Assembly: GCA_028288625.1 (NCBI GenBank)
Contig: JAQBNI010000049.1
Coordinates: forward strand, 771-64,770
Source of the DNA: Bacteroidota bacterium
GTDB lineage: Bacteria; Bacteroidota; Bacteroidia; Chitinophagales; JADIYW01
Length of the DNA: 64,000 nt
Direction of reading: 5' to 3'
The position numbers and the translations under genes were made by a program. Position 1 is the first letter of the stretch. Each line of letters starts with the position of its first letter. Below, piece by piece: positions 40,845-55,954 of the stretch. The notes below the pieces were generated by a model. The model saw nothing but the letters and a program-made list of their open reading frames with translations. It had not been told where the DNA came from and did no database searches.

Positions 40845-41216
40845 TTATTGGTAAGGAATTATTTTTTTTACAAACCACAACGCTTCTTCTTTTTCCATTT
40901 TGTCTGTCACCAGCAACTCTTCGCTGATGTGATGCATCACCTTGCTGTCTTTAATTTCTTTTTGTAAATGATATTTGGATTCAGCAGGACCAAAGATCAA
41001 AATGCGGTGTGCCTTTTCCAGCTTTGCAATTATTGATCTGCAAAAGTTTTTTATATTGTCGTTACTTCTTACGTGGATTCGTTTTTTATCGTTCGCATTT
41101 TTATCAGTGTTTCCATCAATAGATTCTTCATGTATCACATTATTCAGCGCAATAATAAAAGAACGTTTATGATCTATATAGATGCCGTAATTCATAAAGT
41201 CTTTTCTTGTTTTCAT
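40845..41216 (-). CDS. small host-attachment / eRF1-like (baeRF-type) family protein
   Basis: C-terminal pattern HRILIFGPAESKYHLQKEI...LVTDKM resembles the LvLvApp..lG.Lr...DLt core of host-attachment proteins. This is weak, by-eye evidence. Confidence 0.4.
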   Translation of the reverse strand: MKTRKDFMNYGIYIDHKRSFIIALNNVIHEESIDGNTDKNANDKKRIHVRSNDNIKNFCRSIIAKLEKAHRILIFGPAESKYHLQKEIKDSKVMHHISEELLVTDKMEKEEALWFVKKIIPYQ

Positions 41217-41285
41217 CTTTTTTATTTTAGGTTATATGAATCTCTCGTTTACATGGTAAAGATGCCATGATCTCTTCCTTGTCGT

Positions 41286-41322
41286 GTTATACGATTATTT
41301 AAATAAGTTACATTATTTACAC
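41286..41322 (-). promoter_or_regulatory. stress-island motif M1 (minus-strand reading GTGTAAATAA-TGTAAC-N13-CGTATAAC)
   Basis: One of six copies with identical box spacing. 70 nt upstream of the 40845-41216 start. Confidence 0.55.
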
Positions 41323-41352
41323 ATCGGGGAAACACAGGCACTTTGGACAGAA

Positions 41353-42246
41353 TTATTTTTTATTCTTTTCCTTCAATAATTCTTTTTTTGCCTTATTCAT
41401 AAAAATTGCTTCCTTCCTGTCGAGTGGTGGGAATGTCGGGTTCATCTCATCCAGTTTCTCGCGAACGATCTTGCCAATAAGCAAGTGTGCATACCATTTC
41501 TGATCTGCTGGAATTACGTACCATGGCGCATCCTTTGTGTGCGTATGTTTAAGTGCATCTTTATATGCGTCCTGGTATTTATCCCAATATTGTCGTTCTG
41601 TAATATCTGCTGCAGAAAACTTCCAGTGCTTGTCTTTATTTTGTACGCGATCTAAAAAACGTTCGCATTGTTCTTCTTTTGAAATGTGTAGAAAGAATTT
41701 AATGATATGTGTTCCGGTTTGTGTAATGATCTTTTCAAACTCATTGATCTGCTGATAGCGTTCTTCCCAGAATTTTTTATCCACTTGGTCTATCTTATTT
41801 ATTCCCGGAATTCTTTCTGCAAGTACAATTTCCGGATGCACTTTTGATATCAATACATTTTCATAATGAGACCGGTTAAAAATTCCAATCTGCCCCTGTT
41901 CAGGAAAATAGAGATAGTGGCGCCATAAATAATCATGTTTTAATTCCTGGTCATTAGGATGCTTAAAACTGTGCAATACGACACCTTGCGGGTTTATTCC
42001 GCCTACAAGATATTTAATCACCCCGTCCTTGCCTGAACTATCCATGCCCTGGAGAATAATAAGTAACGACTGCGTATTTTCAGCATATAATTTATATTGC
42101 AGATCAGCAAGTTTCTCCGTAGTTTCTACCATCATTTCGCTTAATACAAGCTGTTCCGGTTTTTTATATTTGGATGAGGTTTTAAATTTAGAAAAATTAA
42201 AATCTTTTCCGGATTTAACTTTGTAATCGTTGGTGTGTAGCTTCAT
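41353..42246 (-). CDS. ppk2: polyphosphate kinase 2 family protein
   Basis: Walker A ILQGMDSSGKDG, PPK2 lid and RxxxxR regions. 297 aa. Confidence 0.9.
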   Translation of the reverse strand: MKLHTNDYKVKSGKDFNFSKFKTSSKYKKPEQLVLSEMMVETTEKLADLQYKLYAENTQSLLIILQGMDSSGKDGVIKYLVGGINPQGVVLHSFKHPNDQELKHDYLWRHYLYFPEQGQIGIFNRSHYENVLISKVHPEIVLAERIPGINKIDQVDKKFWEERYQQINEFEKIITQTGTHIIKFFLHISKEEQCERFLDRVQNKDKHWKFSAADITERQYWDKYQDAYKDALKHTHTKDAPWYVIPADQKWYAHLLIGKIVREKLDEMNPTFPPLDRKEAIFMNKAKKELLKEKNKK

Positions 42247-42315
42247 TTGTTTGAAATTATTTTAGGGACAGGAAGAACCTGTTCAATATCCTGTAATAAA
42301 GATGTCGAAATATTT

Positions 42316-42645
42316 TTATTTATTATTTACGTCGGCGTCATTTTCTTCCAGATCATTGTGATTATCTCCGCCGATACTGTAGTAGTTATTTTCTTCATCT
42401 TCTGCGCCGATCATTTCGTTTTCATCATCTAATTCCGCACCAGGCACATCGAGATCTTCTCCTGATTCATCTTCCTTCCAGTCTTTTTCATTCCACTGAT
42501 CGGGATTCTTGTTTATCTCTTTTTTTTCTAAAAGATCTTCGGGATCCAGATCAGGAATTTCCTTTGCCTGGTTATAGATATCTTCTGATGCAGGATAATC
42601 AAAATTTTCAAGCTCATCCTGTGATTTTTTTGGATTCGTTTTCAT
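42316..42645 (-). CDS. highly acidic hypothetical protein
   Basis: ATG at 42645 (MKTNPKKSQDELENF). Asp/Glu-rich throughout. Confidence 0.5.
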   Translation of the reverse strand: MKTNPKKSQDELENFDYPASEDIYNQAKEIPDLDPEDLLEKKEINKNPDQWNEKDWKEDESGEDLDVPGAELDDENEMIGAEDEENNYYSIGGDNHNDLEENDADVNNK

Positions 42646-42671
42646 AAAATTTAATTTAATTGTATATAAAA

Positions 42672-42722
42672 GGAACACGGCGGACCATATGAAGTACTTT
42701 TTAAACCTTCCGCCGGTGTTCC
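42672..42722 (-). terminator. intrinsic terminator downstream of the SDR gene
   Basis: GGAACACCGGCGG / CCGCCGTGTTCC 12-bp stem (one bulge), followed on the minus strand by TTTTATAT. Confidence 0.65.
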
Positions 42723-42784
42723 ATAATTTGTATAATCTTTCAAGTATTTTAGTTTAAGTGAAATGCCAATGTGCATGATTTTTT

Positions 42785-43786
42785 TTAAGGATATCCTTTA
42801 CCTCCTGAAGAACCATAAATTTGTCCGGTTGCATAACTTGCATCGCTCGCTGCCAGCTGCACATAAATCGAGGCTAATTCCGCAGGCTGACCAGGTCTTC
42901 CCAGCGGAGTGTCGCCGCCAAACTTCACTAATTTTTCCTGCGTTGCTCCTCCGCTTACTTGCAACGGCGTCCAGATGGGACCGGGTGCTACACCATTTAC
43001 GCGTATACCTTTTGGTGCTAATTGTTTTGCAAGTGATTTTACATAATTCATTGTTGCAGCCTTCGTTTGTGCATAGTCGTACAAATCTCCCGAAGGATCA
43101 TAAGCCTGCTCAGATGCTGTTCCGATAATTACGGAACCCGGCTTTAAATGGGGAAGAGCGGCTTTAATGATCCAGAAAGGCGCATAGATATTTGTTTTCA
43201 TCGTAGCATCAAATTCTTCTGTAGAGATATCAAGAATTGATGAATGCGTTTGTTGCCGCGCTGCATTATTCACTACGATATCCAAACCGCCGAGACTACT
43301 TATTGCATCATCAACTAATTTTTTACAAAAACTTTCATCCCGAAGATCGCCGGGAATTGCAACCGCTTTTCTTCCTGCTGCTTTGATCAGGTCAACCACT
43401 TCTTTTGCATCAGGTTCTTCTGTTGGAAAATAATTTATCGCAACATCTGCGCCTTCACGTGCATAAGCAATTGCCGCTGCGCGACCCATTCCCGAATCGC
43501 CTCCGGTAATTAATGCTTTGCGACCTGCTAAACGACCTGAACCTTTATACGTTTTTTCGCCATGATCAGGTCTTGGATCCATTTTACTTGCCAAACCTGG
43601 CCACGGTTGTTTCTGGCTGGGAAATGGTGGCTTTGGATATTTTTCTTTTGGGTCTTCCAAGCCAACTGGCGGAGTCTGTGATTCAGGTTTAGAAACTCCA
43701 ATTGCAGGCGACATTGCCAGTGTTGCCAAGCCTGCACCGAAATATTTCAGTACATTTCTTCTTCCAATTTTATTCGCTTCATTCAT
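42785..43786 (-). CDS. SDR family oxidoreductase (YhdF/YghA general-stress type) with N-terminal twin-arginine signal
   Basis: TGGDSGMGRAAA and YxxxK SDR core. N-terminal GRRNVLKYFGAGLATLAMSPAIG precedes the usual YghA-type N-terminus. Confidence 0.85.
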   Translation of the reverse strand: MNEANKIGRRNVLKYFGAGLATLAMSPAIGVSKPESQTPPVGLEDPKEKYPKPPFPSQKQPWPGLASKMDPRPDHGEKTYKGSGRLAGRKALITGGDSGMGRAAAIAYAREGADVAINYFPTEEPDAKEVVDLIKAAGRKAVAIPGDLRDESFCKKLVDDAISSLGGLDIVVNNAARQQTHSSILDISTEEFDATMKTNIYAPFWIIKAALPHLKPGSVIIGTASEQAYDPSGDLYDYAQTKAATMNYVKSLAKQLAPKGIRVNGVAPGPIWTPLQVSGGATQEKLVKFGGDTPLGRPGQPAELASIYVQLAASDASYATGQIYGSSGGKGYP

Positions 43787-43825
43787 AGTTGCAAACGTTG
43801 TTTTTAATTTTGTATGATCAGCATA

Positions 43826-43889
43826 AAAAGGAACAAAGCGAGAGCAGAAATAAATACAATTTTCAAAACCAACTTCGCCTTGTTCTTTT
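43826..43889 (-). terminator. intrinsic terminator downstream of the Cys-rich protein gene
   Basis: AAAAGAACAAGGCGAAG ... CTCGCTTTGTTCCTTTT imperfect long stem, then a T-run on the minus strand. Confidence 0.5.
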
Positions 43890-43897
43890 ATTATTTA

Positions 43898-44215
43898 TTA
43901 TACAAGCATGCTGTTACACTCATTTTCACATTGCCTGCATGCTTCGGCGCATAAGATACAATGTGCATCTGCATGCATCTCACATTCCTGTGCACATGCA
44001 CCGCAAGACTCAGCGCATTCCCGTATTAAACCGGAATCTATATTTGAGTTGTTAGATGCCTCTGCAATAAATTTCTCACATTCATCAGCACAGGCGCGGC
44101 ATAGGCGCTCACATTCTGTTCGCCCTTCCATCCTGCAATGTTCCGCACATATTGCACACTGACTCGCGCATTTTGTGCAAAGTGCTATGCATTTATTCAA
44201 ATGCTCTTTGTCCAT
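43898..44215 (-). CDS. four-helix-bundle Cys-rich copper-binding protein (DUF326 type)
   Basis: Repeated CxxxC/CxxC pattern on four predicted helices (CIALCTKCASQCAICAEHC, CRACADEC, CAESCGACAQEC, CAEACRQCENEC). Confidence 0.8.
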   Translation of the reverse strand: MDKEHLNKCIALCTKCASQCAICAEHCRMEGRTECERLCRACADECEKFIAEASNNSNIDSGLIRECAESCGACAQECEMHADAHCILCAEACRQCENECNSMLV

Positions 44216-44219
44216 TATA

Positions 44220-45002
44220 TTACTTTGTTTCGGGTGTGTTTTTAGGAGGAAGCTTATTAATTATACTTCCATTTTTTCCTACACGCTGACCGTTGGTTAA
44301 TTTTGTTTCTTTTCCATCCTTGGTTTTAACCGTACCATCCGTCATTAAAACTGTACCGTTATCGAACGTTACATCCTTTGTAATAGCTGAGGACTTACCG
44401 CTTTCAAGATGCACTACTTTCCCATTTCTATATACATACGCTTCATGCGAAGTGGTAGAACCCGGATTCATTTTACCGGTAGAGCTTGTATTGCTTTTTC
44501 CTGTAGTACCAGCCGATGTTTTTCCTGTAGAACCTCCGTACGAACCATTATTTGAACCGGATTTATTCGTTCCCATAGAATGGTTGGAATTGCCGGTGCC
44601 TTTATTCATTGATCCGTTAGTTCCATTCATAGAACCATTTGTTCCATTCATTGAGCCGCTGTTTCCTGTGTTTCGATTTGTACCGTTCATATTCGAACCG
44701 CTGTTTCCATTCATATTTTTGGTCGGACTGTTTGTCCCGCTATAATTCTGGTTGCCGATATTATTGCCGGAAGTATTTGTATTCACACCACTTCCGGTAC
44801 CATTGGTTCCGCTTGTCCCGGTATTAATTTGTCCTGTATTACTTACACCGGTTGGTGTGTTTGATCCTGCATTCCCGCCGTTCGTTCCAGTTGTTCCGTT
44901 AGTGCCCTGCGTTCCGATAAAGGAGCTATCCCATGTACGCGAGGTTTGTGCAAATGCAGTTATTCCTGCCGCAATTGCCACTGTTAAAAAAAACTTTTTC
45001 AT
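44220..45002 (-). CDS. secreted low-complexity Asn/Gly/Thr/Ser-rich protein with a structured C-terminal domain
   Basis: Signal peptide, ~150 aa of NGT/NGS repeats, then the YVYRNGKVVHLE...DGTVKTKDG domain. Its stop is 4 nt from the next start. Confidence 0.55.
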   Translation of the reverse strand: MKKFFLTVAIAAGITAFAQTSRTWDSSFIGTQGTNGTTGTNGGNAGSNTPTGVSNTGQINTGTSGTNGTGSGVNTNTSGNNIGNQNYSGTNSPTKNMNGNSGSNMNGTNRNTGNSGSMNGTNGSMNGTNGSMNKGTGNSNHSMGTNKSGSNNGSYGGSTGKTSAGTTGKSNTSSTGKMNPGSTTSHEAYVYRNGKVVHLESGKSSAITKDVTFDNGTVLMTDGTVKTKDGKETKLTNGQRVGKNGSIINKLPPKNTPETK

Positions 45003-45089
45003 TTGTATTAGATTTAGTGTTTAAAAAAAAATTGATGCGATCAATTACTTAATCATGTATCAAATATCAATACGTTTTGAAGAATGTAT

Positions 45090-45126
45090 GTTATAGAATT
45101 TGTTCATTAACTTATATCATTCACAT
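45090..45126 (-). promoter_or_regulatory. stress-island motif M5 (ATGTGAATGA-TATAAG-N13-TCTATAAC)
   Basis: Same box spacing as M1-M4. 88 nt upstream of the 44220-45002 start. Confidence 0.5.
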
Positions 45127-45168
45127 CTAATAATACATATAACCAAGGGCTTAGGAAATTACTTCAAT

Positions 45169-45199
45169 AAAAAAATCCCGTCTTATGTGAGGCGGGATT
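45169..45199 (-). terminator. intrinsic terminator downstream of PepSY-like gene
   Basis: 9-bp stem AATCCCGCC / GACGGGATT followed on the minus strand by T7. Confidence 0.75.
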
Positions 45200-45234
45200 A
45201 AAAGTGAAAAGAGTTTAGTATCGAATTTTATAAT

Positions 45235-45675
45235 TCATAAGGTAAAACTATCTTTTAATAGTTTACCGTCCTGGCTGAATAGTAAACTCTTTTTACTATC
45301 ACTTTTAGCTATTATAACACGGTATTGTGTTATCATGCCAGGTAAAAAAAGAATATATGCCTGTTTAATATTCCATTGTGAAAAATCAGATTTGGATAAA
45401 TTACTTTTTATAGCAGCAGGTAAAGCGTCGATCTGTATATCTCTTTGTGATATTTTCCAATCACCGTTGTTATTGAATTTTGCTTCATACCTATCTCCGT
45501 CGGCATTAAACGCCACTTTATATTCGTTGCCCTGATTATTCCATTGTACGTTTTGCGCAGTAGGATATTTTGTACTAAATGCAGTTGAAACTAACGGTGG
45601 TAATTTAACGCCTTGACCAAAAAGGATACTTCCTGTAAACAGAATAAGAACAGTCAATTTATTTTTTAAATGCAT
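45235..45675 (-). CDS. PepSY-like (putative beta-lactamase-inhibitor-like, DUF2874 type) periplasmic protein
   Basis: Signal peptide and two repeats of the LP..V...F...YP.A....W motif pattern. Paralog at 46740-47186. Confidence 0.65.
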   Translation of the reverse strand: MHLKNKLTVLILFTGSILFGQGVKLPPLVSTAFSTKYPTAQNVQWNNQGNEYKVAFNADGDRYEAKFNNNGDWKISQRDIQIDALPAAIKSNLSKSDFSQWNIKQAYILFLPGMITQYRVIIAKSDSKKSLLFSQDGKLLKDSFTL

Positions 45676-45753
45676 AATTAAAGTTACATGTTAATTATAA
45701 TGTTGTTGTTATACTGAAAGGGATATTTATTATATAATTTCCCTTTCTTCTAT

Positions 45754-45779
45754 AAAAAGACCGGTTTTCACCGGTCTTT
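45754..45779 (-). terminator. intrinsic terminator
   Basis: GACCGGT-GAAA-ACCGGTC followed on the minus strand by T5. Confidence 0.7.
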
Positions 45780-45799
45780 CGTTGTCTTAAAAGAATTGA

Positions 45800-46237
45800 T
45801 CACTTCATTACGATATCTGTGTTGTTAGATAAGTTTATCTCTTCGCTTTCCTTCGAAAAGATAACATGATTAAAATTTTGTCCCAGAACGAGATCATGGT
45901 CTAAAAAGAAATAATCTACATTTACAGCGTAATTAATAGTGTTATAAGATATTTTTATTTTCTCTCCTACGGTTTTCCACTGACCCGTAAGTACTTTTAT
46001 AATTTCTCCCTTATCATTTATAAATTCATGCCTGAATTTATGATTAGGTTCGAAAATAAAAGACTCTGAATGAGTTTGTAAATTTTTTGAGTTCAATACG
46101 AATTGGAAATCATTTTTTATGCTTTGGTTTTTGTATTTCCATGTTCCGATTATTGGGTTGGTTCTTTCATTGTTTTTTGTTGCCCTCATGTAACTTATGT
46201 TTGCAAAGAAGGCTAGTAGTAAAATTAGCGTTTTCAT
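45800..46237 (-). CDS. hypothetical secreted (lipocalin-like) protein
   Basis: ATG at 46237 gives the signal peptide MKTLILLLAFFANISY. GTWKY motif shortly after the signal peptide. Confidence 0.5.
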   Translation of the reverse strand: MKTLILLLAFFANISYMRATKNNERTNPIIGTWKYKNQSIKNDFQFVLNSKNLQTHSESFIFEPNHKFRHEFINDKGEIIKVLTGQWKTVGEKIKISYNTINYAVNVDYFFLDHDLVLGQNFNHVIFSKESEEINLSNNTDIVMK

Positions 46238-46297
46238 AGGGTAAAATTTAGAAGTTAAAGAACTATTGTAAAGTTGTACTTTATATGATACCACTGC

Positions 46298-46334
46298 ATT
46301 ACATTTTTTAATTTTAAGTTTACATGTATCACAC
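46298..46334 (-). promoter_or_regulatory. stress-island motif M6, degenerate (GTGTGATACA-TGTAAA-N13-AATGTAAT)
   Basis: Same spacing. 61 nt upstream of the 46237 start. Confidence 0.4.
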
Positions 46335-46413
46335 GTTATCGAAAACTACTATGTAACTTATCGGAAATGCTAATAAATAAAGGGAGAGAGATGATGTTGA
46401 TATAAAAAAGTAC

Positions 46414-46447
46414 AAAAAAAATGATCTGCAGAACAGATCATTTTTTT
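46414..46447. terminator. bidirectional intrinsic terminator
   Basis: ATGATCTG-CAGAA-CAGATCAT flanked by A8 and T7. Confidence 0.75.
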
Positions 46448-46449
46448 GT

Positions 46450-46653
46450 TTAATGTGTTTTTTCGTATCTCCGGAGAATTACTTTGAGTGATTCAAGATA
46501 ATCCTTTAAGTGTTTAATTTTGACTTCCGGTGCTAATGTATTAGGAACAGTGATCGGTACTTCATGAAGCGTTTCATATACTTCCGGATGAAGTTGTTTT
46601 ATTTGTTCCGTAATCTGTAAGATGTCGCTGTTTAGCTGTTCTTCCGTTTGCAT
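46450..46653 (-). CDS. small hypothetical protein (67 aa)
   Basis: ORF sits between motif M4 and a strong terminator. Confidence 0.45.
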   Translation of the reverse strand: MQTEEQLNSDILQITEQIKQLHPEVYETLHEVPITVPNTLAPEVKIKHLKDYLESLKVILRRYEKTH

Positions 46654-46701
46654 AAATGATGGTTTAATTCATATAAAGTTCGGCATACCTTATTAAAAAT
46701 A

Positions 46702-46738
46702 ATTATATAAACAGGCGAAAAAATTACAACATTCACAC
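46702..46738 (-). promoter_or_regulatory. stress-island motif M4 (GTGTGAATGT-TGTAAT-N13-TATATAAT)
   Basis: 49 nt upstream of the 46653 start. Confidence 0.5.
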
Positions 46739-46739
46739 G

Positions 46740-47186
46740 TTATAATTTCATGGAGAAATTATCTTTCAATAATTTTCCTACAGCATTATATAAGAGGCTT
46801 TTTTTATTCTGTTCGTCTTTTGCAATAATTACCTGGTATTTTTTTACATAAGGATAGATCAATTCATAAACTGATTTGATATTCCAGCTTGCATATTCAC
46901 CGCTTAATAATTGATTTCTTACCAGGTCAGGTAATGAAGCTAGAGTTATTTCCTTCTCTGCCTTTTTCCATTCTCCGCTCTTATTAAATTCCGTCTCATA
47001 CTTATAGCCGTCCAATTCAAAATTTGCTATAAAAGCATTCGGCTCTTCTTTCCATGAAATATTTTTTGCGCCCGGGTATTTCGCATCAAACGTATATGAT
47101 AAATATTTAGGAATATTCTCACCTTTTATGCTTTGTGTAAAAGAGATCAATGCTATAAATAGCATGAGGAAGTAACTGTTTTTCAT
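46740..47186 (-). CDS. PepSY-like (DUF2874 type) periplasmic protein, paralog
   Basis: ATG at 47186 gives the signal peptide MKNSYFLMLFIALISF. Alignable to 45235-45675 (YKYETEFNKSGEWK versus DRYEAKFNNNGDWK; YQVIIAKD versus YRVIIAKS). Confidence 0.65.
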   Translation of the reverse strand: MKNSYFLMLFIALISFTQSIKGENIPKYLSYTFDAKYPGAKNISWKEEPNAFIANFELDGYKYETEFNKSGEWKKAEKEITLASLPDLVRNQLLSGEYASWNIKSVYELIYPYVKKYQVIIAKDEQNKKSLLYNAVGKLLKDNFSMKL

Positions 47187-47280
47187 AACCGTATTATTGT
47201 AGATTAATAATACTGTAAATATGGACCGTATTTTAATAACAGCCATTATATTAAGGTTAAAAAAAGTTACAATATTTACA

Positions 47281-48210
47281 TTACTGAGGTTTAGTCTTTT
47301 TAGGCTTCTCAGGCTCTGTTTTTTCGATCTCTACAGAATAAGAATAAGGAATGATTTTTCTTCTGTGAAAAAGCAGGTATGACTTTGTAAACTCTGCACC
47401 GAAATAGAGGATAATGGCGGAGTAATATACCCATGCGAGAATCAATATTACTGACCCTGCTGCGCCATACGTGGAAGCAACTTTAGAACTTCCTAAGTAT
47501 GCTCCTATAGCAAATTTACCAATCATAAATAAAACAGCAGTAATTGATGCGCCTATCAGCGAATCTTTCCATCCGATCTTTCCATCGGGAAGTGATTTAA
47601 AAATGATGGCGAAGAGTAGGGTGATGATTAAAAATACGATCGCTACATTTATAACGTAAAATACATAAACAGTAACATCAGGAAAGCGTGTCATGATCCT
47701 GTTGCTGAGCAGATCCAGCAAAGTATTAATCATTAAACTCACCAGCAATAAAAATGCAACCGAACCGATCATAGAAAAGGACATTAACCTGTTCTTTAGA
47801 AATTTTACCAGTCCTTGCTTTGGCTTTGCTTTTAATCCCCAGATATAATTCAGAGAGCTTTGCAATTCACTAAACACACCTGATGCACCAATAAGAAGAA
47901 GAATAATTCCGATAATTGAAGCAAGTGTATTGCTTCCCGAGATCGTTACATTTTTTAAGATCTCCTGTATTTGTTTTGCAGCATCATTTCCGACAAAACC
48001 ATTTATTTGCTTAAAAACCTGACCTCTCACGGCTTCATCACCAAAAAATATTCCGCAAATAGAAATGATAATGATCAGCAAGGGTGGGAGCGCAAATGTT
48101 GTATAATAGGAGAGCGATGCACTTAATCTCAATACGTCATCATCCATAAAGGCATTGAACGTTTTTTTTAAAATCGTCCATGCATTTTTGCTGACCACTT
48201 TTAATTTCAT
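47281..48210 (-). CDS. YihY/BrkB (virulence factor BrkB) family membrane protein
   Basis: Six TM helices and family motifs (LSASLSYYTTFALPPLL, VASTYGAAGSVILILAWVYYSAIILYFGAEFT). Confidence 0.85.
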   Translation of the reverse strand: MKLKVVSKNAWTILKKTFNAFMDDDVLRLSASLSYYTTFALPPLLIIIISICGIFFGDEAVRGQVFKQINGFVGNDAAKQIQEILKNVTISGSNTLASIIGIILLLIGASGVFSELQSSLNYIWGLKAKPKQGLVKFLKNRLMSFSMIGSVAFLLLVSLMINTLLDLLSNRIMTRFPDVTVYVFYVINVAIVFLIITLLFAIIFKSLPDGKIGWKDSLIGASITAVLFMIGKFAIGAYLGSSKVASTYGAAGSVILILAWVYYSAIILYFGAEFTKSYLLFHRRKIIPYSYSVEIEKTEPEKPKKTKPQ

Positions 48211-48228
48211 AATGGTTGGTTCAATTCA

Positions 48229-48762
48229 CTATTTTGTTCCTGCAGGTTTTACTCCGCCATAATTTGCAGGGTTAGGTGCAGGTTTTACGGGCGTCGCTGT
48301 TCTGTTCACAGGTGTTCCGGTAGCCGCCGGTGCAGGCTTCACACCACCATAATTTGCAGGATTCGGTGAAGTTTTCACAGGCGCTGCTGTTCTGTTCACA
48401 GGTGTTCCGGTAGCCGCCGGTGCAGGTTTCACACCACCATAATTTGCAGGATTTGGCGCAGGCTTAACTGTCGTTGTGGTTCTGGTAACTGTCGCAGGTC
48501 TTGTGCCGCCATACCGGTTAGGATTATAGTGTTTTTTTGATTTCGTTTTATATTTGTTAGAATGATAAGTTTTTGTACCACCATAATTAGCAGGGTTCGG
48601 TTTTTTCGCTTTTGCTTCATCATCATCTTTTTCTTTATTTTCCCTTCCAGCTTTTGATCGCATTCCACCATAATTAGCAGGGTTATGTGCCAATGCTTTT
48701 ATTGAAAAAAGTATACAGATCATTAGTATAACCGATGCTCCAAAGATTTTTATTGTTTTCAT
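48229..48762 (-). CDS. secreted repeat protein with six NP(A/N)(N/R)YGG motifs
   Basis: Signal peptide. NPANYGG x5 plus NPNRYGG. The C-terminal half is a 30-aa tandem repeat. Confidence 0.6.
   Translation of the reverse strand: MKTIKIFGASVILMICILFSIKALAHNPANYGGMRSKAGRENKEKDDDEAKAKKPNPANYGGTKTYHSNKYKTKSKKHYNPNRYGGTRPATVTRTTTTVKPAPNPANYGGVKPAPAATGTPVNRTAAPVKTSPNPANYGGVKPAPAATGTPVNRTATPVKPAPNPANYGGVKPAGTK
48254..48450. repeat. 90-nt tandem repeat (about 2.2 copies) inside the repeat-protein gene
   Basis: CC(G/A)CCATAATTTGCAGG recurs at 48254, 48344 and 48434, with near-identical intervening sequence. Confidence 0.85.
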
Positions 48763-48798
48763 TTTTTTATTTATTTATTCAAGTTTATAATAATCATT

Positions 48799-49995
48799 TT
48801 ATTTTCCGGGTCCTCCGGGTCTTGCTCCGCCATAGTTAGCGGGGTTTGGTGCTCTTTGCTGCGGTTGCGGCGCAGGTGCCCTGTTTACCGGTGCAGGTGA
48901 CGGTGACGGTGACGGTCGTGACCCACCATAATTAGAGGGCGCCGGTTCCCGTTGCGGTGCGGGTTCCCTGATCACAGGCGTCTGTTCAGTTCTCTTCACA
49001 GGCGCCGGTTGTCTTGTAACTGGTGCCGGTTGTGAGATCACCGGGGCAGGTCTTGTTCCACCATAATTTGCAGGGTTAGGACTTTGACTCGGTTGAGTTC
49101 TGGTTCCGCTGTTTCCATTTGTATTTGTTCCGCCGGGTGTTGCCCCGCCATAATTCCTTGGGTTAGGAGAAGATTTTGGCTGAGTTCTTGTGCCAGGATT
49201 TGTATTTGTATTTGTTCCGCCCGGTTTTGTTCCACCGTAATTTGCGGGATTAGGAGAAGTTTTTGGGGGAGTCTTAATTGCACTCGCCGGTTTTACGCCA
49301 CCATAATTTGCAGGGTTTGGTTTTGCATCACCGGTTTTGTCAACACGCGGACGATAGATATTCCATTTACCATTACTCATCAGTTGACCCGGTTTATCAC
49401 GTTCATAAATTGTAACCGGTGTAAAATTTCTGCCTGTTACGTGGCGAACTTCAACAACATTCGGTCCATTGTATCGCGTCGAATTTCTATAGATCGTCTG
49501 GTTGTTTGTAGCATAATAACGGTACATGTCTTGTCTTCCGAAATAAGTATTTCTTACAAACCTGCAGCGGTAATAATCATCGATGTCAGATCTTACACCC
49601 ATCGGTTCCCAACCATAATAACCGGGAGAGTTTCTCCAGGTCACCCATGCCGGTCCCCATTCTGTATCAGGGATCCAGAACCATCCGTATAATGGATCAT
49701 AATCCCATCGGCCATAGTGAAATGGCGCCCAACCCCATACATAATTGGAGTACCATGACCATCCTGCATCTGTATACACCCAATTACCATTTGTTCCGTA
49801 AGGAAAAAAATTCGGTCCAGCATCAGGTATCCATACGTATCCGTAATCCGGGTATGTAATCCACTGTCCGTATGGACCGAGCTGATCATAAAATACCTGC
49901 ATGCTTACAGATTGTGCTGAAGCTTTTTGCGGCAATAGCCATGACGATGCAGTTAATGCAATCACAAGGCTTATCATTTTAATATATGTTCTCAT
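48799..49995 (-). CDS. secreted protein: Trp/Tyr-rich YxWGxW-type N-terminal domain plus Pro-rich tail with six NPANYGG-type motifs
   Basis: Signal peptide. The N-terminal ~215 aa are rich in W/Y/G (YVWGWAPFHYGRW, GWFWIPDTEWGPAWVTW). The tail has NPANYGG x4, NPRNYGG and PSNYGG. Confidence 0.6.
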   Translation of the reverse strand: MRTYIKMISLVIALTASSWLLPQKASAQSVSMQVFYDQLGPYGQWITYPDYGYVWIPDAGPNFFPYGTNGNWVYTDAGWSWYSNYVWGWAPFHYGRWDYDPLYGWFWIPDTEWGPAWVTWRNSPGYYGWEPMGVRSDIDDYYRCRFVRNTYFGRQDMYRYYATNNQTIYRNSTRYNGPNVVEVRHVTGRNFTPVTIYERDKPGQLMSNGKWNIYRPRVDKTGDAKPNPANYGGVKPASAIKTPPKTSPNPANYGGTKPGGTNTNTNPGTRTQPKSSPNPRNYGGATPGGTNTNGNSGTRTQPSQSPNPANYGGTRPAPVISQPAPVTRQPAPVKRTEQTPVIREPAPQREPAPSNYGGSRPSPSPSPAPVNRAPAPQPQQRAPNPANYGGARPGGPGK

Positions 49996-50005
49996 TGCTG
50001 TTTTT

Positions 50006-50479
50006 TTATTTTGATGAATGTTCCCTCGTGGGAATAATAAATAGCGGGATGTCTGAATCTTTTAAAACTTTTTCCGCTACACTTCCGATTAAAATCTTTT
50101 CGAGTCCGCGCCGGCTGTGTGAACCCATTACAATAATATCTGCATGTACTTCTTTTGCAGTTTCTAAAATTGATGATGCAAAATCACCTTCCTTTACTAT
50201 AGTATCAATGGTTTCCTCTTTGAGATGCTGTTTCGTTTTATCCAGGAAACTCTGTGCAGCAGCTGTTATTTTACTGTTGTCCGTTACCTGCATAATATCT
50301 GAAGGATTTAAACCTGTATAACCCATAATAGGAGAGTACATGGAAGAATAATAAGTAGCGTCAACAATTACGTGTAACAAAACTGCTTCGGCTTTCATCG
50401 CTTTGGCGAGCTTCAATCCGGTTTCCGCGATCTTTTGAGCGCTGGGATTATAATCTAGTGCGATAAGTATTTTTTTCAT
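50006..50479 (-). CDS. universal stress protein (UspA family)
   Basis: MKKILIALD, VIVMGSHSRRGLEKILIGSVAEKV (ATP-binding G-2x-G-9x-GS). Confidence 0.85.
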   Translation of the reverse strand: MKKILIALDYNPSAQKIAETGLKLAKAMKAEAVLLHVIVDATYYSSMYSPIMGYTGLNPSDIMQVTDNSKITAAAQSFLDKTKQHLKEETIDTIVKEGDFASSILETAKEVHADIIVMGSHSRRGLEKILIGSVAEKVLKDSDIPLFIIPTREHSSK

Positions 50480-50576
50480 AAGATGAAATTAATAAAACCG
50501 TTTTTTTGAAAATCCGGTAATACAAAATTGTCATAATAGTGACTATGCAAATTTGATACCGTTTAAAAGGATAAGT

Positions 50577-50613
50577 GTTATATAACTCATAAAAAGAGTT
50601 ACATGATTCACAC
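50577..50613 (-). promoter_or_regulatory. stress-island motif M3 (GTGTGAATCA-TGTAAC-N13-TATATAAC)
   Basis: 98 nt upstream of the USP start. Heads the USP / NPANYGG x2 / YihY / PepSY gene string. Confidence 0.55.
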
Positions 50614-50694
50614 TAACCATATAAAAGAATGTTAAATAGAAGGAGTTACGACTATAATAAAAAGGTTTTAGTAATTACAGCGGAACAGTGATAA

Positions 50695-51615
50695 TTATTC
50701 TACAGTCTTTTCCGGTTCGATCTCTACTTTAACGGCTTCAATTTCTACCGCATATTCATTTGGAATAATTTTTTCTCCGTGTGCATGTGCATACACCTTT
50801 GTAAGTTCTGCACCGAAATAAAGAATATTCGCAGAGTAATATACCCATACTAAGATCACGATGAGAGAACCGGCAGCACCGTATACAGAAGCCAGGGAGG
50901 AATGACCAATGTATGCGCTTATCGCAAATTTACCAAGCATAAAAAGAAGAGAAGTGACCGAAGAGCCAATGATCGCATCCTTCCAGGAAATTTTCCCATC
51001 GGGAAGCGTTTTAAAAATCAATGTAAATAATAGTGTGACGAGAGCAAACAAAATAATGTGATTGAGATAAAATAAATATACAGCAATATGCGGAAAATGT
51101 GCAACCAGACGATTACTGATCAGGTCGAATAAAGTATTGACCATTAAACTCACCAGCAATAAAAAACCGAGACAGCCCACCATGGAAAACGACAGGATCC
51201 TGTTCTCTATGAATTTGAGAAACCTTCTTTTTGGTTTTGCATCCAGTCGCCATATAAAATTTATAGAGCTCTGCATCTCTGAGAAAACCCCGGTGGCTCC
51301 AATCAACAGCATAACTACTCCAAGCAGATTTGCAAAGAAGTTACTGTGAGACAGCGTTACATTTTTCAATGTATTTTGTATTTGGAGGGCGGCATCATTG
51401 CCCACGAATTTATTGATCTGTCCAAAAATTTCACCGCGAATGGCATCGGCACCGAAAAATATTCCGCATGTGGAAATGATCACGATCAGCAGTGGCGGCA
51501 AGGAAAAGATCGTATAATAGGAGAGGGAAGCGCTTAATTTTATTCCATTATCGTCAATGTATTCACTTATGGTTTCAGATAGAATTGACCAAATATTTTT
51601 CATCAATATTTTCAT
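50695..51615 (-). CDS. YihY/BrkB family membrane protein, paralog
   Basis: Collinear with 47281-48210 along the whole length (LSASLSYYTIFSLPPLL, ASVYGAAGSLIVILVWVYYSANILYFGAELT). Confidence 0.85.
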   Translation of the reverse strand: MKILMKNIWSILSETISEYIDDNGIKLSASLSYYTIFSLPPLLIVIISTCGIFFGADAIRGEIFGQINKFVGNDAALQIQNTLKNVTLSHSNFFANLLGVVMLLIGATGVFSEMQSSINFIWRLDAKPKRRFLKFIENRILSFSMVGCLGFLLLVSLMVNTLFDLISNRLVAHFPHIAVYLFYLNHIILFALVTLLFTLIFKTLPDGKISWKDAIIGSSVTSLLFMLGKFAISAYIGHSSLASVYGAAGSLIVILVWVYYSANILYFGAELTKVYAHAHGEKIIPNEYAVEIEAVKVEIEPEKTVE

Positions 51616-51684
51616 AAGAAATGCATTTCTGACTCAAAGGTAAGTTCCAAAGATAAGAAGTTATGGAGTATTATAAGTAAGTAA

Positions 51685-51909
51685 CTATCCTGCTGTCCTG
51701 TTATTTTTTGTACCTGCGACGGGCACTTGTAATTTATGGATATGCTTATGGGTTTTCTCGATTTCCGGTAGCGGTTCTTCCTCTTCCATAATTCTTTCCC
51801 TTTCCCGTTTTGTACTTTGTTTCTTTTTCGGCGGAAGTTCAGGGATAATTTTTTCTTCCTTATTTATTACAGGCTTTACTGTTTGTTTTTTTGTGATATC
51901 CGTTTTCAT
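51685..51909 (-). CDS. small basic hypothetical protein (74 aa)
   Basis: Lys/Glu/Pro-rich ORF between topoisomerase IB and YihY. Confidence 0.4.
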   Translation of the reverse strand: MKTDITKKQTVKPVINKEEKIIPELPPKKKQSTKRERERIMEEEEPLPEIEKTHKHIHKLQVPVAGTKNNRTAG

Positions 51910-52011
51910 TTTATTGTTTTTGAAGTGAACAATTAAAAAGCGACCTTATTATAAAACTCCATAGGTAAATAAATGTTCTTTGTCTTTCATTCAACATTCA
52001 TCATTTATTCT

Positions 52012-53091
52012 TCAGTTTGTTTCAAGAATCTTTAACAGCAATTCCTCTTCAGGAGACAATCCCGCTATTCCCGCTTCTGACTCGTTTAATTGTTCCAGGT
52101 ATTTACCAAGTTTTTTTTCTTCATATAATTTCACCACGATGGGATGGACATAATATTTTTTACAAACCGTTCTTGTATTGCCCAGCTGTTTGGCGACCAT
52201 ATCATATACAGCAACGATTTTCCGGTTCTTTTCCGTTTCTGATTCAAAATTTTCAACTTCTTTAAAACCTAAAATTGCCTGTACAGTGCCAGCCCATGTA
52301 CGGAAATCTTTTGCAGTAAAATCGCCGCTTGAAATAGTACGAATATATTCATTCACCATACCGGATTCCACATTATGCACGGCTCCGTTTTCATCGAGGT
52401 AGGTAAATAATTCTTTACCGGGAATTTCTTTGCATCCTTTTACAATGTTTGCCAGGCGCCGGCTTCTAAGGTCGATCTGGTGTTGCACTCCTTTTTTACC
52501 TTTAAAGGTGAAGACGATCTTCGTTCCATTTACTTGTACGTGGCGGTTCTTCATTGTCGAAAGTCCAAAAGAACCGTAAAGCTTTTCATAAAAAGAATTT
52601 CCTATCCTGATCTTGGTTCGTTCCAGTAAACTCACTACAGCGGCTAAAACTTTTTCGCGGGGAAAGCCGGAAAGCGATAAATGTTTTTCCAACTGCTTAC
52701 GCATCACCGGCAACTGTTTTCCGAATTCGAGCAGCCTGTAAAATTTAGTGTGGTTTCGTACCGTATTCCATGACGGATGATAACGGTATTGTTTTCTTCC
52801 CAGCTTATCAGTTCCCGTTACCTGAAGGTGACCATTCTCTAATTTGCATATCCATACATTTTCCCAGGCAGGCGGAATCACCAGTTTTTTTATACGCGCC
52901 AGCTGATCTTTATCAGTTAATTTCTGATCTCCCTCCATATAATAAAAAGATGCTCCATCACGTAGTCGCACAAAACCTTCGTCCTGATCGCTGACATATA
53001 CGAGGTTAACTGCCTTTGCAGATTTTGCAGGATCTTTAATTCCTGCACGGAGTGTGCGCTTATTTACACTGATCTCACCTTCCAGAACCAT
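52012..53091 (-). CDS. DNA topoisomerase IB (poxvirus-type bacterial TopIB)
   Basis: IPPAWENVWI, GHLQVTGTDKLGRKQYRYH, and C-terminal catalytic region (TVCKKYYVHP). Confidence 0.85.
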   Translation of the reverse strand: MVLEGEISVNKRTLRAGIKDPAKSAKAVNLVYVSDQDEGFVRLRDGASFYYMEGDQKLTDKDQLARIKKLVIPPAWENVWICKLENGHLQVTGTDKLGRKQYRYHPSWNTVRNHTKFYRLLEFGKQLPVMRKQLEKHLSLSGFPREKVLAAVVSLLERTKIRIGNSFYEKLYGSFGLSTMKNRHVQVNGTKIVFTFKGKKGVQHQIDLRSRRLANIVKGCKEIPGKELFTYLDENGAVHNVESGMVNEYIRTISSGDFTAKDFRTWAGTVQAILGFKEVENFESETEKNRKIVAVYDMVAKQLGNTRTVCKKYYVHPIVVKLYEEKKLGKYLEQLNESEAGIAGLSPEEELLLKILETN

Positions 53092-53133
53092 CTCATAATT
53101 TATTCAAAGATCTGTTGAATAATATCATCTCTT

Positions 53134-53170
53134 GTTATACGACTCTATTAAAGAATTATATCATTTACAC
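53134..53170 (-). promoter_or_regulatory. stress-island motif M2 (GTGTAAATGA-TATAAT-N13-CGTATAAC)
   Basis: 43 nt upstream of the topoisomerase IB start. Confidence 0.55.
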
Positions 53171-53428: not shown

Positions 53429-55228
53429 ATGAGGATGAGACATACTATTCATGAAAGTATAACGGGTATTCAAAAAAAGATGATCACTTCCGGTGAATCA
53501 GCGGCGATCTTTGAAAGGATCTCTGATGGATTTTTGATGTTGGATAAAAAATTCCGTTATACATACGCGAACAGGCAGGTAGCAAGAATGACCGGGCGCG
53601 ACGTGGAATCTCTCATTGGAAAATGCTTATGGGAAGTATTTCCCGATATCCAGGATACTTCAACTTTCAAAGCTATTCAAAAGGCTATGAAGGAAAATCG
53701 TTACGTCACAAATACTGAATATTATGCGCCTTTGAAGATCTGGCAGGAAAATCATATTTATCCAACTTCCAGTGGGCTGTCTATACTTATCCGCGATTTA
53801 ACTGCAACCCGTAAGGCACGACAGGAAATAAACGATTCGGAAAAAAAACATAAAGATCTTTTTGATCACAACCCATTGCCGTTGTGGATATATGACCTGG
53901 ATACTTGCCGGTTCCTCGAAGTAAACCATGCTGCTATAAAGCATTACGGATATTCACGAAAGGAGTTTTTAAATATGACTTTGTATGACATCAGGTCCAG
54001 GAACAATTCGAATAAGCTTAAGGAGTATTTTAAAGGGGATTACTATCACGAGACAAAAGTATGGGAACATATAAAAAAGAACGGGGAAACAATTTTTGTT
54101 GAAATTCATTCACACCCTATAAAATATAATGACCATAGCGCAAGGCTCGTTTCTATAAACGATATCACTTTCAAGAAAAAATTTGAAGACGCGCTGCAAA
54201 CAAGTGAACAGCGGTACAGACGAATTGTAGAAACTGCGCAGGAAGGTATATGGACAATAGATGAAAATAACCAAACGAATTTCGTCAATAAAAAAATATG
54301 CGAGATGCTTGAATATCCTTCGGATCAAATTATGGGAGAGAGCTTTCATAATTTTATGGATGCACAAGGCAAACGAATTGCTTCTGCTTTTTTAGTCAAA
54401 GGGAAAAAAGAACAGAATTACAGGTTCGATTTCCGGTTTATATCAAAAAAAGGAAATGTGATATGGACCTCTATTGCAACGAATCCTATTATTGACGACA
54501 AAGGCAAATACAAGGGCAGTCTGGCAATGATCACAGATATTACGGAAAGAAAAAAAGTAGAATTGGAATTACTCCAGCTGAATGATCAGCTTCATCATCT
54601 CAATTCACATTTGCAAACCATCCGCGAAGAAGAGCGGACTAATATTGCCCGTGAAATTCATGATGAACTCGGTCAGCAGTTAACAGGAATAAAAATTCAG
54701 ATCGGTCGGTTAAAAAAAGCAAAATCAGATCAGCCTGAAATTATAGAAAAATCAAATCATATGATCGGTATGGTGGATAATGCAATACGTACCGTTAGAA
54801 AAATAGTAACTGAATTACGACCGGGCATATTGGATGACCTGGGACTTGAAGCAGCCATTGAATGGCAGGCAAAAGAATTTACGGAACGGTTCGGGATCAC
54901 GTGTGTAGTAAAAGCAAATCTTACGCACGAAAATTTTTCTAAAGAAATTAAAACAGCTGTGTTCAGGATATTCCAGGAATCTTTAACGAATGTGGCGCGG
55001 CATGCCAATGCGACGCACGTAGATGTCTGGCTTTATGAAAGTAAAAAGAACCTGTTACTTGAAGTAACGGATAATGGGAGAGGAATAACTCAGGAACAAA
55101 TAAATAACAGTGTTTCATTCGGTATACTCGGGATGAAAGAAAGAGCTGCAATATTGAAAGGTGATTTTTTTATTGAGGAATGTCCGGAAGGCGGAACTTG
55201 TGTAATCTTAAAAATACCTTTGCCATGA
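53429..55228 (+). CDS. multi-PAS sensor histidine kinase (HisKA_3 / HATPase_c, NarL-partner type)
   Basis: Three PAS-like blocks, H-box EEERTNIAREIHDELGQQLTG, N and G boxes (ESLTNVARHA, DNGRGI, GILGMKERA). Confidence 0.88.
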   Translation: MRMRHTIHESITGIQKKMITSGESAAIFERISDGFLMLDKKFRYTYANRQVARMTGRDVESLIGKCLWEVFPDIQDTSTFKAIQKAMKENRYVTNTEYYAPLKIWQENHIYPTSSGLSILIRDLTATRKARQEINDSEKKHKDLFDHNPLPLWIYDLDTCRFLEVNHAAIKHYGYSRKEFLNMTLYDIRSRNNSNKLKEYFKGDYYHETKVWEHIKKNGETIFVEIHSHPIKYNDHSARLVSINDITFKKKFEDALQTSEQRYRRIVETAQEGIWTIDENNQTNFVNKKICEMLEYPSDQIMGESFHNFMDAQGKRIASAFLVKGKKEQNYRFDFRFISKKGNVIWTSIATNPIIDDKGKYKGSLAMITDITERKKVELELLQLNDQLHHLNSHLQTIREEERTNIAREIHDELGQQLTGIKIQIGRLKKAKSDQPEIIEKSNHMIGMVDNAIRTVRKIVTELRPGILDDLGLEAAIEWQAKEFTERFGITCVVKANLTHENFSKEIKTAVFRIFQESLTNVARHANATHVDVWLYESKKNLLLEVTDNGRGITQEQINNSVSFGILGMKERAAILKGDFFIEECPEGGTCVILKIPLP

Positions 55229-55854: not shown

Positions 55855-55858
55855 GGCT

Positions 55859-55951: not shown

Positions 55952-55954
55952 CAA

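Follow-up and report, generated by a model that had tools for sequence, protein, structure and literature searches.

Which regulator reads a rigidly spaced motif that recurs upstream of stress- and dormancy-type genes in a 64-kb stretch of DNA from a Chitinophagales bacterium of the phylum Bacteroidota (contig JAQBNI010000049.1; the whole stretch is called the window below)? An initial annotation had described six copies of GTGTRAAT-NN-TRTAAY-N13-YRTATAAY on the minus strand, had proposed that they mark a regulon, and had likened the motif to ECF-sigma promoters and to a CRP-type site. The motif proved to be the local form of a promoter design that occurs across Bacteroidota before stress-protection genes. 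As to its reader, we estimate a probability of about 0.6 that the copies are activator-dependent promoters of the housekeeping sigma-A type, with boxes 1-3 bound by a small AraC-type regulator carrying an HMA-like N-terminal domain, and that they serve a regulon of general-stress or dormancy type.

Eight copies of the motif in the window

Both strands of the window (127,868 positions) were scanned with a regular expression and a position weight matrix (PWM). All six copies described before (M1 to M6) were recovered on the minus strand; the pattern is exact in M1 to M4, and M5 and M6 deviate from it at a few positions and keep its spacing. The set of six was incomplete, as two more copies, M7 and M8, were found, the latter being the weakest, with a degenerate box 1. 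All eight are intergenic on the minus strand, and each faces a start codon (Table 1). For the six originally listed copies, the distance from box 3 to the ATG measured 42-97 nt, in agreement with the 43-98 nt claimed. The CGT that had been taken as part of box 3 turned out to be peculiar to M1 and M2 and lies outside the consensus.

Neither scan revealed a further copy anywhere in the 64 kb, and the next-best PWM score was 6 bits, compared with 27-46 bits for the seven training copies. With leave-one-out matrices, each of the eight copies ranked within the top 8 of the 127,868 positions. A matrix built from foreign genomes only gave 23-54 bits for seven window copies and 8.7 for M8, the maximum of 20 shuffles being 10; M3 is the window copy nearest to the phylum consensus. 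No copy lies inside a gene, and the pattern extended by the fourth box described below matched exactly five times in the window and not once in 100 shuffles. A search of the whole window against Rfam gave no match that would point to an RNA element.

A fourth box resembling the sigma-A -7 element

Ungapped alignment of the copies disclosed a fourth conserved box, nAnnTTT[GA], which is present in 8/8 copies and ends 29 nt past box 3 (28 nt in M4), giving a rigid element of about 66 bp. The orthologous copies of relatives have it at the same fixed distance. Start codons lie 3, 13, 19, 29, 31, 40, 58 and 68 nt past box 4 and never before it (the figure for M7 uses the ATG at 47186). Box 4 resembles the Bacteroidota sigma-A -7 box TAnnTTTG, exact copies of which are about twofold enriched in the intergenic DNA of the window (19 of 66 occurrences in the 13% that is intergenic). 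The earlier statement that the motif does not resemble the housekeeping promoter of the phylum therefore holds for boxes 1-3, but the -7-like box had been overlooked. The usual TTG at -33 is not present: the position 19 nt upstream of box 4 reads C-A-C, C-A-A or similar, and box 3 occupies the region. A scan of the island for sigma-70-type -35/-10 pairs was uninformative, with 51 sites found and 47.7 expected.

In Flavobacterium psychrophilum, the flavobacterial -7 box has been mapped at -12 to -5 (PMC9723704). If box 4 is such an element, transcription would start about 5 nt downstream of it, and box 3 would consequently lie at -41 to -34, box 2 at -60 to -55 and box 1 at -70 to -63. On the same predicted start, the half-site within box 3 would cover -39 to -34, next to the -35 region. 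At M8, the ATG of the PepSY-like gene follows box 4 by just 3 nt, which predicts a leaderless mRNA.

Conservation of the boxes in relatives

Judged by homologues of its topoisomerase IB, the window belongs to Chitinophagales-like Bacteroidota. Contig L001, the nearest relative found, has a topoisomerase IB 90% identical to that of the window and carries the same island, with the motif at every matching promoter including M8; in its M7 copy, box 1 has lost 1 nt. Identity between the window and L001 is 94% in boxes 1-3 but 68% in the spacers (Fisher p = 5e-11), and the boxes thus stand out as a clear phylogenetic footprint. An origin of the copies by recent duplication of one promoter cassette was rejected, since the spacers differ among them and only the boxes are kept between the window and L001.

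A more distant contig, L003 (topoisomerase IB 73% identical), has the gene outside the island and still carries ATGCAAAA-ga-TATAAC-N13-TGTGTAAC-N21-CATTTTTG before it, so the motif tracks the gene and not the island. The expectation that the motif should precede orthologous genes was thus borne out in L001 and L003, but not for topoisomerase IB in the more distant Chitinophagales L004, L005 and L006. The two Ilyomonas-type loci among these share a different element before topoisomerase IB, TACCAnnnTGGTA followed by TTCCCATT (L005, around 9830-9900; L006, around 9850-9920), and the gene may there be under another regulator.

A promoter design spread across Bacteroidota

We searched one genome per species, 185,579 species in all, for TGTRAAT-NN-TRTAA-N16-TRTAAY-N25-TTTR. 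At least 120 stretches matched, a lower bound, and all counts of loci given below refer to the 120 matches listed; by our own estimate from base composition, a few tens of matches would be expected by chance across the entire collection. Going by their titles, about 114 of the records come from Bacteroidota, with Bacteroidales, Chitinophagales, Flavobacteriales, Cytophagales and Saprospirales represented among the matches listed, and the remainder comprise one metagenome-assembled genome each labelled Ignavibacteriae, FCB group, Polyangiaceae and Woesearchaeota, together with two records that have no taxon in the title. Many of the listed 8-kb blocks hold two or three matches. An open reading frame (ORF) starts within 250 nt of box 4 in 143 of 156 listed sites, at a median of 38 nt.

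A logo built from 153 sites, numbered from the T of TGTGAAT, gave the consensus AATG-TGTGAAT-nA-TGTAAC-TTTTT...AATTR-TGTAAC-AC-N19-yAnCTTTG. Positions that the search pattern had left free proved conserved, namely the AATG before box 1 (A at -2, 93%), the A at position 9 (83%), the AATT at 26-29, and in box 4 the second-position A (97%) and the fourth-position C (71%). The sequence AATnA-TGTAAC (positions 5-15) recurs as AATTR-TGTAAC (26-36), that is, with a period of 21 bp, and the second AATT was absent from the search pattern. Box 3 thus duplicates box 2 together with its AAT leader, and the motif that had been described as tripartite is a direct repeat with an extra distal box. The TATAAC and CGTATAAC forms of the window are, by this comparison, lineage variants.

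Genes downstream of the motif

Pfam families of the first ORFs after 119 listed sites were led by CsbD (8), DUF5670 (6), OmpA (5), Cupin_2 (5) and DUF6600 (4), and included Ice_binding, YtxH, glycine-zipper domains and BrkB, a member of the BrkB/YihY family formerly called ribonuclease BN. Clustering of all 803 ORFs from the 120 listed loci added USP, an sll1863-family stress protein, MlaE/F/D, a P-type ATPase, a 788-aa glycosyltransferase, GH130, and a family of about 125 aa homologous to the 123-aa protein of the window. Gene content of this kind is that of a general stress response, and it recalls the sigma-B regulon of Bacillus. The proposal that the motif marks co-regulated stress and dormancy units is supported accordingly, by orthologues in L001 and L003 and, across the phylum, by classic general-stress families; so is the idea of a regulon whose governing factor is not encoded beside each unit. 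Near motif sites in L014, L092 and L095, and in L004 at 4727-5716, we also observed a conserved trio that looks like a core stress operon of the phylum. It consists of YtxH, a roughly 115-aa membrane protein (holin_3_6-like in L004) and a third protein of roughly 137 aa.

Published data for F. psychrophilum offer a possible view of the regulon in a model organism. Table S4 of PMC9723704 gives the genes whose expression falls in the lowest 25% in all 64 samples, many of which lie in THC0290_1129-1210. Among these are a 179-aa AraC-family gene (THC0290_1150), a 144-aa response regulator, 'ribonuclease BN', a 778-aa glycosyltransferase, a PH1107-type glycosidase, UspA, an ABC permease with its ATPase, and outer-membrane proteins (PMC9723704). 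These are the families that neighbour the motif elsewhere, and judged by the listed families the region may be the regulon of this organism, which would then be silent under 32 laboratory conditions. The promoter tables of F. psychrophilum, which give experimental starts, were searched with six box-3 strings, and no promoter with the right geometry was found; in THC0290_T_0932, a candidate checked by hand, TGTAAC lies 14 nt, not 21 nt, from the -7 box. The 179-aa AraC gene was not among the best 120 homologues of the candidate regulator described next.

A small HMA-AraC protein linked to the motif

In the neighbour analysis, histidine kinases and receiver-domain proteins formed the most widespread family (39 of 120 loci). 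Second came a single tight family, here called HMA-AraC, whose members are 179-198 aa long and have an AraC DNA-binding domain; it is represented by 35 genes in 30 loci. It is the only DNA-binding protein enriched beside the motif in these loci; LuxR-type, OmpR-type and LytTR regulators were not enriched among the neighbours. The motif lies directly downstream of 22 of the 35 HMA-AraC genes. In 20 loci from several orders the two are joined in an identical register, the TGA stop codon of the HMA-AraC gene being the TGA of TGTGAAT in box 1 (L008, L015, L022, L025 and L073, among others; L127, 6553-6561; L129, 6532-6540). The protein there ends in ...ENV or ...DDV, encoded by ...AATGTG in the frame ..AAT GTG TGA AT, so that the C-terminal codons of the regulator and the presumed binding site constrain each other. 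In 6 of the 30 loci the motif lies upstream of the HMA-AraC gene, which suggests autoregulation, and several of these copies head an operon of AraC, hybrid histidine kinase and a 143-144 aa receiver-domain protein.

The linkage also held in reverse. Starting from the protein alone, we found a PWM-scoring site just downstream of the gene in 5/5 distinct loci, from Chitinophaga nivalis, Niastella caeni (six sites in 12.5 kb), a Chitinophagaceae metagenome contig, Perlabentimonas gracilis (Bacteroidales) and Algoriphagus persicinus (Cytophagales); in the last of these the nearest site is a weak match (12.9 bits). Chitinophagaceae share a conserved arrangement, which runs AraC, motif, 121-aa cupin, DUF5670, motif and 260-aa HisKA kinase. 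There appear to be two subtypes of the regulator (L035, L037, L038, L057, L075, L083, L087 and L095). Members of one have 179-186 aa and end in ..ENV or ..DDV, with the motif downstream, followed by the 121-aa cupin; those of the other have 181-196 aa and a longer C-terminus, and the motif is often upstream, with a hybrid PAS kinase of about 1000 aa and the 143-144 aa receiver-domain protein often following.

HMA-AraC proteins, which bear only generic names in the source databases, share about 80% identity between orders, as would suit a DNA site that is itself conserved. Their C-terminal domain of about 100 aa has two helix-turn-helix motifs (Pfam HTH_18 and HTH_AraC), and residues 73-176 align to the complete DNA-binding domains of MarA, SoxS, Rob and YesN-type proteins. 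An AlphaFold2 model (pLDDT 87.7) predicts an N-terminal beta-alpha-beta-beta-alpha-beta domain, with a CxxC before helix 1, followed by a seven-helix AraC domain. Compared by Foldseek, the C-terminal part of the model matched MarA, SoxS and AdpA (TM-score 0.7-0.83), and the N-terminal part matched the HMA metallochaperones GolB, Atx1 and HAH1 (TM-score 0.6-0.7) with weak E-values of 0.03-0.1 and had no Pfam HMA match. Many members keep the CxxC (MVCIRCK), and in others it is replaced (MVSLRCK, MVSNRCK).

A proposed mechanism and its alternatives

We propose that each copy acts as an activator-dependent promoter of the Bacteroidota housekeeping sigma-A type, with box 3 in place of the -33 TTG. 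Boxes 1-3 would be sites of one transcription factor: two direct-repeat half-sites AATnR-TGTAAC with a 21-bp period, at about -60 to -55 and -39 to -34, of which the distal one has an additional TGTGAAT box at about -69 to -63. Direct repeats with this period, the proximal one abutting the -35 region, are the classic layout of AraC (araBAD), XylS (Pm) and RhaS. The factor would be the phylum-conserved HMA-AraC protein, with its ferredoxin-fold, often CxxC-bearing N-terminus and its two-helix-turn-helix domain. By analogy with class II AraC/XylS activators, two copies would bind head-to-tail and recruit RNA polymerase, the promoter-proximal copy contacting the -33 region. Predicted targets in the window are topoisomerase IB, USP, BrkB, DUF6600, the PepSY-like proteins, DUF6799/DUF326 and the 123-aa protein. 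HMA-AraC itself has no receiver domain, and the many PAS kinases and single receiver-domain proteins nearby, in the window as elsewhere, suggest input by a phosphorelay.

Several observations weigh against this proposal. tblastn found no HMA-AraC homologue in the 64-kb window, and a 5.2-kb contig that carries the window's last gene (L137) holds only more two-component genes. A PAS histidine kinase and a NarL-type regulator are conserved as a pair beside the island in this lineage, and the more distant Chitinophagales named above have no motif at topoisomerase IB. As to the site, the distal boxes are 9 bp apart, compared with about 10.5 bp between the two recognition elements of MarA, the proximal half-site has no clear partner of the TGTGAAT box, and box 4 is a degenerate -7 box whose first position is T in only about 36% of the 153 sites. 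The linkage is moreover an association, not binding, and the AraC-like gene could be a member of the regulon and not its regulator.

That last point underlies the alternative that survives best, which we nevertheless consider improbable: boxes with a 21-bp direct repeat would be bound by some other, unlinked protein such as a LytTR response regulator, HMA-AraC being no more than a conserved neighbour or member of the regulon. LytTR proteins recognise 9-bp direct repeats separated by 12 bp, and the kinases and receiver-domain proteins that top the list of neighbours would fit such a system. However, neither LytTR nor any other DNA-binding output domain is enriched among the neighbours, the boxes appear to fit the LytTR consensus poorly, and a stop codon embedded in box 1 in 20 loci is most simply read as a regulator paired with its target.

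Slightly less probable still is an alternative sigma factor, of the ECF or another class, for which the TGTAAC or TATAAC of box 3 would be the -35 element and box 4 or a sequence near it the -10 element, with boxes 1-2 as an enhancer or second site. GTAAC does resemble ECF -35 elements, one motif site in Niastella (L128) is immediately preceded by an ECF sigma gene, and ECF-like genes occur in 4 of the 120 loci. The ECF reading of the initial annotation nevertheless fails on several counts. CGT is not conserved, positions 29-30 of the logo being T and A/G. From AAC to the local CGT, found in M1 and M2 only, the spacing is 13 nt, and there is no conservation 16-17 nt past AAC; the conserved downstream element is instead 21 nt away and is yAnCTTTG, of the sigma-A -7 type. 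Box 3 plainly repeats box 2, and no sigma gene family is enriched near the motif in the 120 loci.

Binding by the neighbouring two-component system, a DosR-like arrangement of the kinase (53429-55228) and the NarL/LuxR regulator (55180-55854), is in our view a poor prospect. The pair is transcribed divergently from topoisomerase IB and is kept, with single receiver-domain proteins, beside the island in L001; a similar pair occurs in the contig of a 70%-identical relative, and tripartite sites are known for ComA of the NarL family. In the 120 loci, however, the window's two LuxR-type regulators match receiver domains only, with no match to the LuxR helix-turn-helix. L003 has the motif at topoisomerase IB and no such pair within its 10.5-kb contig, and NarL-type sites are usually inverted repeats. 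Outside the lineage of the window this candidate found no support, and we rejected it. Very improbable, finally, is the Crp/Fnr-type protein (58456-59100) reading TGTGA-N6-TAACT as a degenerate CRP site, as the initial annotation had entertained: the left half does match TGTGA, and in the window, L001, L127 and L129 cNMP-binding proteins are encoded no more than a few kb away, but the right half, TAAC(T), is a direct copy and not the palindromic TCACA (TGTGAAT, TGTAAC and TGTAAC being direct repeats), a CRP dimer site would leave the third copy, 21 bp away, unaccounted for, and Crp-like genes occur in only 2 of the 120 loci, so that this neighbour is not associated with the motif elsewhere.

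Returning to the proposed activation by HMA-AraC, we know of no sigma-S, sigma-B or EcfG-type system in Bacteroidota and of no defined general stress or dormancy response in the phylum. The motif and HMA-AraC might together be the master switch of such a response, a counterpart of those systems that works through the housekeeping sigma factor; we regard this wider role as tentative, at somewhat less than even odds. If it were true, input could come from hybrid histidine kinases, single receiver-domain proteins and possibly a redox- or metal-sensitive CxxC, and the response may be silent under standard laboratory conditions. In practical terms, the promoter architecture of 66-70 nt can be scanned for in any Bacteroidota genome, and a named family of candidate regulators is available for testing. 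The predicted regulon groups DUF6600, DUF5670, DUF6799, PepSY-like and 123-aa-family proteins with USP, BrkB, CsbD, YtxH, topoisomerase IB and PPK2, although PPK2 has no motif of its own. An inducible activator-dependent promoter would also serve as a genetic tool, of which the phylum has few.

Genes and units in the window

Genes of the window were annotated with Pfam and NCBIfam, and the features are collected in Table 1. The left 37 kb is housekeeping metabolism. The five-gene string led by USP in the initial annotation comprises two units, as M7 lies inside it, and the gene order of the M3 unit is the same in L001. Terminator-like hairpins stand between several of the single-gene units. 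The label 'eRF1-like' for the 123-aa protein could not be confirmed, as neither Pfam nor NCBIfam gave a match; the protein belongs to the family of about 125 aa with a conserved ..LFGPtdAK.. that occurs in 8 of the 120 motif loci. With two exact TAnnTTTG boxes upstream, the BrkB gene that follows the M2 unit is probably transcribed from a sigma-A promoter of its own, independently of M2.

Two local observations concern single sites. Within M8 is a short inverted repeat, AGGGA...TCCCT, which in L001 (17315-17343) reads AGGGG...CCCCT, so that the change is compensatory; the repeat may form a hairpin that overlaps box 1, or it may be a coincidence. On the plus strand, ATGTAAAT-gt-TATAAT corresponds to boxes 1-2 alone, without box 3 or 4, and was excluded from the count. 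It lies 13 nt before a pyrimidine-dimer DNA glycosylase gene, within the 56-nt gap to a divergent outer-membrane-like gene, and may be due to chance or a remnant.

Table 1. Motif copies, transcription units and other features of the window. Promoter coordinates span boxes 1-4; bits refer to the PWM built from foreign genomes.
Feature	Coordinates	Strand	Sequence or content	Remarks
Promoter M1	41257-41322 (boxes 1-3, 41286-41322)	minus	GTGTAAAT-aa-TGTAAC-N13-CGTATAAC-N21-CATCTTTA	47 bits; before 123-aa gene
Promoter M2	53105-53170 (boxes 1-3, 53134-53170)	minus	GTGTAAAT-ga-TATAAT-N13-CGTATAAC-N21-GATCTTTG	38 bits; topoisomerase IB ATG 13 nt past box 4; kept in L001
Promoter M3	50548-50613 (boxes 1-3, 50577-50613)	minus	GTGTGAAT-ca-TGTAAC-N13-TATATAAC-N21-CAAATTTG	54 bits; before USP-led unit
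Promoter M4	46673-46738 (boxes 1-3, 46702-46738)	minus	GTGTGAAT-gt-TGTAAT-N13-TATATAAT; box 4 gAACTTTA (version AACTTTA)	box 4 displaced 1 nt; before 67-aa gene
Promoter M5	45061-45126 (boxes 1-3, 45090-45126)	minus	ATGTGAAT-ga-TATAAG-N13-TCTATAAC-N21-GATATTTG	36 bits; before DUF6799/DUF326 pair
Promoter M6	46269-46334 (boxes 1-3, 46298-46334)	minus	GTGTGATA-ca-TGTAAA-N13-AATGTAAT-N21-CAACTTTA	27 bits; before 145-aa gene
Promoter M7	47216-47281 (boxes 1-3, 47245-47281)	minus	ATGTAAAT-at-TGTAAC-N13-AATATAAT-N21-CATATTTA	newly found; before PepSY-like gene
Promoter M8	45679-45744 (boxes 1-3, 45708-45744)	minus	AGGGAAAT-ta-TATAAT-N13-AGTATAAC-N21-TAACTTTA	newly found; before second PepSY-like gene; kept in L001
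Inverted repeat at M8	45716-45744	minus	AGGGA...TCCCT	
Partial site	40231-40267	plus	boxes 1-2 alone	
M2 unit	51685-53091	minus	topoisomerase IB (52012-53091)	probably with 74-aa ORF (51685-51909)
BrkB gene after M2 unit	50695-51615	minus	BrkB	exact TAnnTTTG boxes 19 and 32 nt upstream (region 51616-51684)
M3 unit	47281-50479	minus	USP (50006-50479), DUF6600 (48799-49995), 177-aa ORF (48229-48762), BrkB/YihY (47281-48210)	
Four single-gene units	45235-47186	minus	units of M7, M4, M6 and M8	separate promoters
PepSY-like gene	46740-47186	minus	likely 148-aa product from ATG 47186, as called in L001	M7
67-aa gene	46450-46653	minus		M4; terminator 46415-46447
145-aa gene	45800-46237	minus	earlier label 'lipocalin-like'	M6; hairpin 45756-45779
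Second PepSY-like gene	45235-45675	minus		M8
M5 unit	43898-45002	minus	DUF6799 protein (44220-45002), Cys-rich DUF326 protein (43898-44215)	
Genes between M5 and M1 units		minus	SDR, YhdF-type (42785-43786); 120-aa ORF; PPK2 (41353-42246)	no motif of their own
M1 unit	40845-41216	minus	123-aa protein	
DNA glycosylase gene	40280-40756		pyrimidine-dimer DNA glycosylase	
Signalling cluster	53429-63734	plus	members below	divergent from topoisomerase IB; conserved in L001
PAS/HisKA_3 kinase	53429-55228	plus		signalling cluster
NarL/LuxR response regulator	55180-55854	plus		signalling cluster
Three single receiver-domain proteins		plus	128, 127 and 147 aa	signalling cluster
Crp-like protein	58456-59100	plus		signalling cluster
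T9SS-tail protein		plus		signalling cluster
Second LuxR-type regulator		plus		signalling cluster
PAS-domain protein		plus	1113 aa	signalling cluster; N-terminus matches receiver domains

Comparison with known systems

Full-text searches of the literature returned no account of either the motif or an HMA-AraC regulator, and the reported promoter motifs of Bacteroides thetaiotaomicron (PM2) and F. psychrophilum (SM1-6) differ from it. With the Bacteroidota sigma-A promoter (TTG at -33, TAnnTTTG at -7), the element shares box 4, nAnnTTTG, at one fixed position and ATG distances typical of the short leaders of the phylum. It differs in having no -33 TTG at 19-nt spacing, a first T of the -7 box that is often C or G, and three additional upstream boxes. 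The island resembles the DosR/DevR system of Mycobacterium in its USP-rich dormancy-type genes beside a HisKA_3 kinase and a NarL-type regulator, but DosR boxes are 20-bp palindromes, and here the NarL-type regulator is unlinked to the motif in other genomes.

In gene content the predicted regulon recalls those of sigma-B (Bacillus), sigma-S (Proteobacteria) and EcfG/PhyR (Alphaproteobacteria), sharing CsbD, YtxH, USP, YhdF-type SDR, OmpA/glycine-zipper and BrkB/YihY-type proteins, and here too histidine kinases and single receiver-domain proteins cluster, in this case with the candidate regulator. Whereas those systems use an alternative sigma factor with its own -35 and -10 elements, the promoters described here have a housekeeping-like -7 box, and specificity apparently comes from an activator. 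There is also a likeness to MarA, SoxS and Rob of Enterobacteria: a small AraC-family protein is likewise proposed for a multi-gene stress regulon, with a degenerate asymmetric box at fixed distances from the core promoter, and the DNA-binding domain of the model superposes on theirs. Marboxes, however, are single 20-bp sites for a monomer, whereas two or three tandem boxes occur here, and sequence, phylum, sigma context and the extra HMA-like domain also set the two apart.

A further likeness is to the class II sites of the AraC/XylS family (AraC I1-I2 at araBAD, XylS at Pm, RhaS/RhaR, MelR), which also consist of two direct-repeat half-sites with a 21-bp period. There too the proximal half-site abuts or replaces the -35/-33 element, as predicted here, the regulator has a two-helix-turn-helix AraC domain, and its gene adjoins the target promoter. 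Unlike these systems, the present one has a Bacteroidota sigma-A core with a -7 box only, and a candidate regulator of about 180 aa with an HMA-like N-terminus in place of the cupin or sugar-binding domain of the classic family. It would also serve dozens of dispersed stress genes instead of one catabolic operon, and its candidate regulator is tied to it by genomic linkage. An AraC-type activator with tandem direct repeats is a well-known kind of regulator; this member of it seems to be new, as do its spread over the phylum and the stress genes of its regulon.

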